Shown: positions 425 through 525, numbered from the stretch's first letter. The stretch: DNA of 7,471 bases from a virus (IMGVR_UViG_2671180384_000010); one strand, 5' to 3'. Program-made: numbers and translations. Notes: a model not told the origin generated them from the letters alone.

Positions 425-452
425 TTGATTTTTCCGGAATCTGTGGTAAATT
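425..452 (+). promoter_or_regulatory. Late promoter pR'-like: -35 TTGATT (425-430), -10 TAAATT (447-452), then AACGATGGG pause-type element
   Basis: The -10 TAAATT, the 6-nt spacing to an A at ~459, and the following AACGATGGG match my recollection of lambda pR' and its pause-inducing element. Position directly after the Q-like gene. Confidence 0.5.
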
Positions 453-458
453 CGTCAT

Positions 459-524
459 AACGATGGGCGTTTTATGCCTGACGTTAGAAGAGTTTCTACA
501 ACCCGCCGCCGAGCGGGTTTTTTA
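459..524 (+). ncRNA. Short pR'-to-tR' terminated transcript (lambda 6S RNA / StxS-type analogue), about 66 nt
   Basis: Inferred from the predicted start at ~459 and the intrinsic terminator at 501-525. No direct evidence of transcription. Confidence 0.3.
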
Positions 525-525
525 T
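501..525 (+). terminator. tR'-like intrinsic terminator
   Basis: Stem ACCCGC (501-506) / GCGGGT (513-518), loop CGCCGA, followed by a T-run (518-524). Confidence 0.55.

Follow-up and report, generated by a model that had tools for sequence, protein, structure and literature searches.

Two probable lambda-Q-type late-gene control cassettes in the viral sequence IMGVR_UViG_2671180384_000010, with natural variation in the pause element

Introduction

The Q antiterminator family is defined by PF03589, and its cassette consists of the Q gene, the promoter pR', a sigma-dependent pause element, a terminator and the late genes (Yin 2022); the same architecture was published in Bird 2016. In lambda, AACGAT at +1 to +6 is followed by GGG at +7 to +9, and the polymerase pauses at +16/+17 (Bird 2016; Strobel and Roberts 2014), the consensus of the scrunched sigma-dependent pause being T+14 N+15 Y+16 G+17. 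The Q-binding element (QBE) of lambda is located between the -35 and the -10, and the C-terminal residues of lambda Q belong to the antitermination nozzle (Yin 2022). Furthermore, the small RNA StxS of Stx1/Stx2a phages comes from constitutive pR' transcription that ends at the terminator tR' in the lysogen. Its primary transcript of 258 nt is processed to 74 nt by RNase E, and the phages that make it have an unrelated Q of 144 aa. StxS associates with Hfq, and rpoS and stx1 are under its control (Sy, Lan and Tree 2020).

The present study concerns a stretch of 7,471 nt from the virus IMGVR_UViG_2671180384_000010 (the window, that is, the whole stretch that was analysed), in which an initial annotation had placed a lambda-like pR'/pause/tR' unit at 425-525 (copy 1), with a second copy at 4476-4576 (copy 2). 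Both copies are very probably late-gene control cassettes of lambdoid prophages with an antiterminator of the lambda Q family, and the interpretation of the unit in the initial annotation was supported as essentially right. The cassette itself is a textbook late-gene switch, and the only parts that exceed the textbook are a conserved stem at the 5' end of the transcript and the variation that one clade shows in the pause element.

Architecture of the two cassettes and comparison with lambda

Direct reading of the sequence gave the predicted promoter, the pause element and the hairpin of both copies at exactly the positions annotated (Table 1). The composite motif TTGATT-N16-TAAATT-N6-AANNATGGG occurred exactly twice in the window, compared with 0.00 occurrences expected from 200 dinucleotide shuffles, and copy 2 was offset from copy 1 by 4051 nt. 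The promoter starts 6 nt past the stop codon of Q. The likeness to lambda pR' given in the initial annotation was confirmed, the lambda genome (NC_001416) reading TTGACT-17-TAAATT-TGACTC-AACGATGGG. In the alignment with this characterised pR', the -10, the 6-nt discriminator and the nine bases from +1 to +9 were the same. In addition, both systems have a T-N-Y-G sequence after these nine bases, a (T)CGTT with which the 5' end of the RNA pairs, and an intrinsic terminator ahead of the late genes. They differ in the spacer, which is 16 nt in the window and 17 nt in lambda, with no similarity between the two, and in the terminator, which would give an RNA of about 65 nt in the window but lies about 190 nt from the start in lambda.

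The Q protein of copy 2, which is identical to that of copy 1, matched PF03589 with an E value of 1.9e-32 and 111.7 bits (cut-off 26.7). In a phmmer search, the lambda Q structures 7UBM and 7UBN matched the full-length Q of 273 aa from phage mEp460_ev081 (E 2.8e-40). The 273-aa Q aligned with lambda Q over the N-terminal 113 and the C-terminal 92 residues, and these conserved halves are separated by an insert, rich in Cys, of about 68 residues; the alignment with lambda Q and its relatives ended in an invariant C-terminal VTR. The architecture of the two copies was in agreement with the published Q cassette (Yin 2022; Bird 2016). The unit is widespread, and more than 1,000 closed Escherichia coli genomes carry at least 80% of the region.

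By analogy with lambda, sigma-70 RNA polymerase would start at A459 (A4510 in copy 2) from TTGATT-16-TAAATT, and sigma region 2 would then re-bind the non-template AACGAT plus GGG at +1 to +9, so that the complex would scrunch and pause near +17 at the T-N-Y-G match. The TCGTCA that occupies the position of lambda's -35-like TTGACT may have a role in repositioning sigma region 4. Without Q, the polymerase would resume and terminate at the hairpin and U run, giving an RNA of about 63-65 nt. With Q bound to the promoter spacer and to the paused polymerase, the complex would become resistant to terminators and would read into the methylase, the tRNAs, the STnc100/PasD-like RNA and the lysis genes.

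Conservation in other Enterobacterales

For relatives outside E. coli, one genome per species was scanned for relatives of Q. These were found in Enterobacter, Dryocola, Chimaeribacter, Erwinia, Kalamiella, Edwardsiella, Kosakonia, Phytobacter and Buttiauxella, among other genera, and 27 distinct cassettes from other Enterobacterales, with Q 40-58% identical, were compared. In these cassettes the pause element lay 58-95 nt after the Q stop, six bases behind a -10-like hexamer, and AACGATGGG was unchanged in 22 of the 27. The hairpin and T run of this set lay most often 45-70 nt from the start, so short terminated RNAs are the common form and the long transcript of lambda is the exception.

The spacer was conserved as TTTTCC[C/G]GAA[T/A]CTGTG in the subfamily of the window, with Q only 50-58% identical, while the Qin-type and lambda-type subfamilies had other conserved spacers instead. 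This pattern is as expected of a Q-binding element, for which the spacer at 431-446 is a candidate.

Several points weigh against the reading of the two copies as late-gene control cassettes. The promoter matches the consensus at 8 of 12 positions, and a generic promoter scan omits it because 9 are required. Furthermore, neither Q copy is complete in the window, the first being cut by the window edge and the second by an N run near an IS3-family transposase gene, and the window is a patchwork of repeats; for these reasons the two cassettes may sit in defective prophages. The weak promoter match, and its absence from the generic scan, would also fit a hairpin that is merely the terminator of the Q gene, with promoter-like and pause-like motifs that are chance matches without function. 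This explanation is highly improbable, given that no occurrence of the composite motif was expected by shuffling, that AACGATGGG is kept at a fixed spacing behind the -10 in many genera despite diverged surroundings, and that it does not differ from the lambda element, which has been defined by experiment.

The pause element and the G-to-T change in copy 2

The TATG at +15 to +18 is a full T-N-Y-G match lying 1 nt further downstream than that of lambda, and a pause near +17 is therefore predicted from it. As the initial annotation had noticed, a G-to-T change lies inside the pause element of copy 2, where the base at 4513 (hexamer position 4) is T and that of copy 1 is G. The change is not the only difference between the copies: copy 2 also has an 8-bp deletion, which the initial annotation did not mention, and different DNA beyond the terminator, the two copies being unrelated immediately past the T run in the alignment.

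The pause element of copy 2, AACTATGGG, retains A+2, A+5, T+6 and GGG. Its match to TATAAT remains 3 of 6, because G and T are both non-consensus at position 4, where the consensus is A. It has been reported that a consensus element at lambda pR' raises pausing and Q-dependent arrest (Strobel and Roberts 2014), from which it follows that pause strength matters and that the natural non-consensus element is a compromise. For this reason it is mechanistically reasonable that the G-to-T change could alter pausing, as had been proposed. However, the predicted effect on sigma binding is small, and AACTAT probably behaves much like AACGAT. Among the matches listed, which is the scope of all counts from viral contigs given in this and the following sections, the AACTAT allele was present in six related contigs from IMG/VR, four of them with the 8-bp deletion. 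It was rare in closed E. coli genomes (1 of 5,426), where it occurred with a normal Q stop. Hexamer positions 3 and 4 show a natural allelic series, to which the change in copy 2 belongs. A comparative study of Stx-phage pR' regions from 2018 contained no discussion of pause elements.

Focused variation at +3, +4 and +11 in the E. coli clade

At least 103-118 copies of exactly this promoter were obtained from viral contigs, together with a sister clade. These samples are arbitrary and non-random, and clonal relatedness was only partly handled by the tree. The flanks of the clade copies were more than 97% identical, and +3, +4 and +11 (window 461, 462 and 469) ranked highest in entropy among the 625 ungapped columns of the alignment. 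The bases were C in 69, T in 34 and A in 5 copies at +3; G in 82, A in 20 and T in 6 at +4; and T in 63, G in 39 and C in 6 at +11. On a tree built from the remaining columns, the same three positions were the most homoplastic, with 20, 9 and 13 Fitch steps, respectively, compared with 8, 6 and 5 for the next columns and a median of 1. One flank haplotype, identical over about 220 nt, carried eight allele combinations. Exact 46-mers were found in closed genomes for AACGAT with G at +11 (155 records), AATAAT with T at +11 (255 records) and AATGAT with T at +11 (183 records), and therefore the alleles do exist.

The sister clade has the same AACGATGGGCG, a discriminator of TGCTCT or TGCCCT, and more diverse flanks. 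AACGAT was kept in 104 of its 107 copies, and the wider family also keeps AACGAT. The focused variation is thus clade-specific, because the sister clade is nearly invariant at the same positions. A general mutational hot spot, due to the paused bubble or to the two CpG dinucleotides, is unlikely, the sister clade with AACGATGGGCG being invariant. By eye, a quasi-palindrome around the hot spot (CGTCAT/ATGGGCG) was too imperfect, and none of the type I restriction sites starting with AAC matched.

The variation might indicate that the pause element serves as an evolutionary rheostat in this clade, in which the series from AACGAT to AATAAT would tune pausing, Q-dependent escape and the timing or leakiness of late and lysis functions. 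This idea is based on +3 and +4 being the two non-consensus hexamer positions that sigma reads least, and on the repeated, independent changes at these positions and at +11 in otherwise near-identical cassettes with Q intact. We regard it as tentative and rather doubtful. Alternatively, the variation could come from a mutational hot spot that is local and linked to this promoter. Among the variant calls at +3 and +4, 54 of 65 shift toward TATAAT; since such changes are also transitions, selection and mutation bias are indistinguishable here. If selection does drive the pause variation, the clade would provide a ready-made allelic series for relating pause strength to antitermination efficiency in vivo, which has so far been addressed with engineered lambda templates.

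The 5' stem of the transcript

AACG at 459-462 can pair with CGTT at 482-485, about 20 nt downstream; in copy 2 the corresponding positions are 4510-4513 and 4533-4536. CGTT or TCGTT was found at +16 to +26 in 23 of 27 cassettes including lambda (AACGA/UCGUU), compared with a chance mean of 2.3 and a maximum of 9. Furthermore, compensatory pairs were found in two cases with differing pause hexamers: Pectobacterium has AACAA with TTGTT, and Yokenella has AATGA with TCATT. The stem was also recovered by the consensus fold. These comparisons point to a conserved 5' stem of the late transcript that is supported by covariation. Because the distance between AACG and CGTT varies, a fixed DNA site is less likely than pairing within the RNA (or within single-stranded DNA). 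The same bases serve both the pause element and the 5' stem, and the G-to-T change in copy 2 shortens the stem from 4 to 3 pairs and shifts the predicted fold energy from -21.4 to -19.0 kcal/mol. To our knowledge, this stem has not been described for lambda pR', and it was not mentioned in the papers that we examined. A conserved pairing of the first bases of the transcript with CGTT would add a directly testable feature to the lambda pR' paradigm.

A different use of the 5' end would be a leader-peptide attenuator, in which translation of a short open reading frame (ORF) from the ATG at 463 (MGVLCLTLEEFLQPAAERVFYD in copy 1) controls the terminator. This ATG is 4 nt from the predicted 5' end, and in Rfam, where no family was assigned to the RNA at the gathering score, Trp_leader matched at 21.8 and 25.7 bits, compared with the 41 that are required. 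However, the ATG belongs to the conserved AACGATGGG and there is no ribosome-binding site. In addition, the reading frame amounts to M-G-stop in lambda but has 11 codons in Enterobacter and 45 in copy 2. The leader-peptide mechanism was rejected because the ORF behind the ATG is not conserved, and we consider it barely credible.

The terminator, the short RNA and the homologue in the K-12 Qin prophage

The tR' consists of a 7-bp GC-rich stem followed by T6 according to the terminator scan and the fold. The hairpin and T run end about 63-65 nt from A459 and were found by the terminator scan in both copies, which was in agreement with the terminator annotated about 65 nt downstream. Among relatives, the stems are kept and the loops vary. 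The terminator and about 40 nt after it (window 500-560) recur at about 88% identity in Stx2a phages (L002, 1500-1560), where no Q gene lies directly upstream, which suggests a mosaic boundary at the terminator.

A homologous unit was identified in the cryptic prophage Qin of E. coli K-12, after ydfT/quuQ, at about 1,642,356-1,642,422 on the minus strand of NC_000913.3. It reads TTGCAT-17-TAAAAT-6-AACGATGGGC, with CGTT at +24 and an ACCCGC/GCGGGT terminator. Both its Q (44% identity) and its promoter, pause element and terminator are homologous to those of the window, whereas the spacer, the discriminator and the middle of the RNA differ. In published Term-seq data, two growth conditions gave a dominant orphan 3' end at 1,642,356(-). 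This 3' end lies a few bases past the T run of the hairpin, at a distance of about 67 nt from the predicted start. No name for the Qin RNA was found in the annotation or in the papers examined, neither coordinate version gave an entry close to the K-12 homologue in the Cappable-seq supplements, a literature search on quuQ/ydfT returned nothing relevant, and a paper on NET-seq pauses made no mention of prophages.

The initial annotation had compared the short transcript with lambda 6S RNA and StxS. The comparison holds for the position of the RNA but not for its sequence. With lambda 6S RNA only +1 to +9 are common, the transcripts being unrelated beyond +9 and different in length. With StxS, for which the Sakai region was read, the terminator stem alone is alike (24 nt at 87.5% in blastn-short) and there is no similarity outside it; moreover, the Q of the window is of the 273-aa PF03589 type and the distance to the terminator is about 65 nt. 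HnrS was considered because it is a multicopy prophage RNA of 66 nt; it is complementary over 15 nt to the 3' end of mazF and targets hha through a CUUCU seed. The mazF-end complement was absent from the window and from 125 other loci, and an HnrS-like viral locus was unrelated. Like the RNA of the window, HnrS and PasA-D of enterohaemorrhagic and enteropathogenic E. coli (EHEC/EPEC) are short, end in a terminator and come from late regions of lambdoid prophages, but they have other sequences and other positions. The probe sequences from the original table of PasA-D were absent from the window, and the reported sizes were 79-236 nt. By these sequence comparisons, the RNA of the window is none of StxS, lambda 6S, HnrS and PasA-D, and is only an analogue of them in position.

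It has also to be asked whether the RNA of about 65 nt, in addition to arising as a by-product of antitermination control, is, like StxS, a trans-acting Hfq-dependent regulator, with +3, +4 and +11 in a diversifying 5' seed. The regulation of rpoS and stx1 by an RNA from pR'-tR' termination is a precedent, the RNA has a hairpin and U run at its 3' end, its K-12 homologue has a strong 3' end in uninduced cells, and the variable positions cluster in the 5' part. Nevertheless, such a role is unlikely: the RNA resembles neither StxS nor HnrS nor the PasA-D probes and belongs to no Rfam family, and the sister clade shares this 5' sequence and is invariant there, which speaks against a general diversifying seed. 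Irrespective of such a role, the analysis provides an annotation, for over a thousand closed E. coli genomes, of an unnamed, abundant RNA of about 65 nt with its predicted promoter, identifies the K-12 Qin homologue of this RNA and sets it apart from StxS, HnrS and the Pas RNAs.

The Q gene of copy 2 and the state of the cassettes

In the alignment of the two copies (window 4465-4511 with 409-424), copy 2 lacks 8 bp (AGGTAACA) directly upstream of the -35. Relatives carry the 8-bp unit AGGTAAC[T/A] once, twice or three times. Because the deletion takes out the stop codon, the Q ORF of copy 2 is 11 codons longer: after VTR it gains the residues LIFPESVVNSS, and the new TAA at 4509-4511, reached by crossing the promoter, overlaps the predicted start. 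Q forms of 284 aa were found in five related contigs. Since the C-terminal residues of lambda Q form part of the nozzle, the extension of Q may matter more than the G-to-T change.

It is quite possible, although we lean against it, that the cassettes are correctly recognized but are relics here, lying in defective prophages, with the Q extension and AACTAT of copy 2 as signs of decay. The transposase gene, the N runs and the repeated segments of the window fit with this, as do the lost Q stop after VTR, the uncalled middle tRNA of copy 2 and the rarity of AACTAT in closed genomes. By contrast, 92 of 103 copies of the clade had an intact Q ORF of 273 aa, whichever pause allele was present. In addition, the variation falls on three positions and is not spread as in general decay, and the haplotype of copy 2 recurs in four contigs.

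Features of the window and neighbouring genes

The features are listed in Table 1. The order of the 65-aa ORF, the methylase and the tRNA genes after copy 1 was also found in Stx2_EH1910, and in a related prophage the holin, lysozyme and lysis genes lie downstream of the cassette. A 2026 preprint ties the STnc100 family to PasD and to PF03589 Q genes.

Table 1. Coordinates of the cassette elements and of other features in the window
Feature	Sequence or description	Position	Strand	Basis or remark
pR' -35 hexamer, copy 1	TTGATT	425-430	+	sequence; aligns with lambda pR' TTGACT
Promoter spacer, copy 1	16 nt, TTTCCGGAATCTGTGG	431-446	+	candidate Q-binding element
pR' -10 hexamer, copy 1	TAAATT	447-452	+	same as lambda pR' -10
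Discriminator, copy 1	CGTCAT, 6 nt	453-458	+	alignment
TCGTCA	TCGTCA	452-457	+	position of lambda's -35-like TTGACT
Predicted start A459 and pause element, copy 1	AACGAT (+1 to +6) and GGG (+7 to +9)	459-467	+	AACGATGGG, as lambda +1 to +9
T-N-Y-G match	TATG	473-476 (+15 to +18)	+	read from sequence
Complement of AACG +1 to +4	CGTT	482-485 (+24 to +27)	+	folds
Terminator tR', copy 1	AACCCGC/GCGGGTT, loop CGCCGA	stem 500-519, T run 518-523	+	terminator scan, fold
pR', copy 2	-35, spacer, -10	-35 4476-4481, -10 4498-4503	+	identical to copy 1
Pause element, copy 2	AACTATGGG, AACTAT and GGG, T at 4513 (+4)	4510-4518	+	
Terminator tR', copy 2	hairpin and T run	hairpin 4551-4570, T run to 4574	+	identical to copy 1
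Q gene 3' part, copy 1	ORF 51-419, stop TAA 417-419	1-419	+	5' part beyond window edge
Q gene, copy 2	own stop lost	3939-4511	+	5' end lost at N run 3924-3931
65-aa ORF		644-841	+	downstream of tR' copy 1
DNA methylase		992-2050	+	downstream of tR' copy 1
Three tRNAs		2091-2340	+	downstream of tR' copy 1
tRNA cluster	two tRNAs called	4614-4866	+	directly after tR' copy 2
STnc100-type RNAs	three copies	2417-2606, 5563-5752, 6462-6651		Rfam RF02076, 124-134 bits
IS3-family transposase gene		2828-3646	-	
iraM-like anti-adapter gene		6677-7012	-	NCBIfam NF007393, E 5e-48; downstream of third tRNA cluster

After the second tRNA cluster, the 117-aa ORF at 4977-5330 (+) had no family match, and a DUF1737 gene was also present downstream in the window. 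The middle tRNA (Arg, tcg) was called in the two other clusters, and the cluster of copy 2 looks disrupted at 4690-4789. The window contains six families of long direct repeats, besides an N run (3924-3931) and one isolated n (5787). It looks like a scaffolded or IS-riddled multi-prophage region, an observation made on 2775-3931 and 7395-7471. The stretch at about 2779-2855, beside the 3' end of the transposase gene, recurs at 7395-7471, within the 3' part of the DUF1737 ORF.
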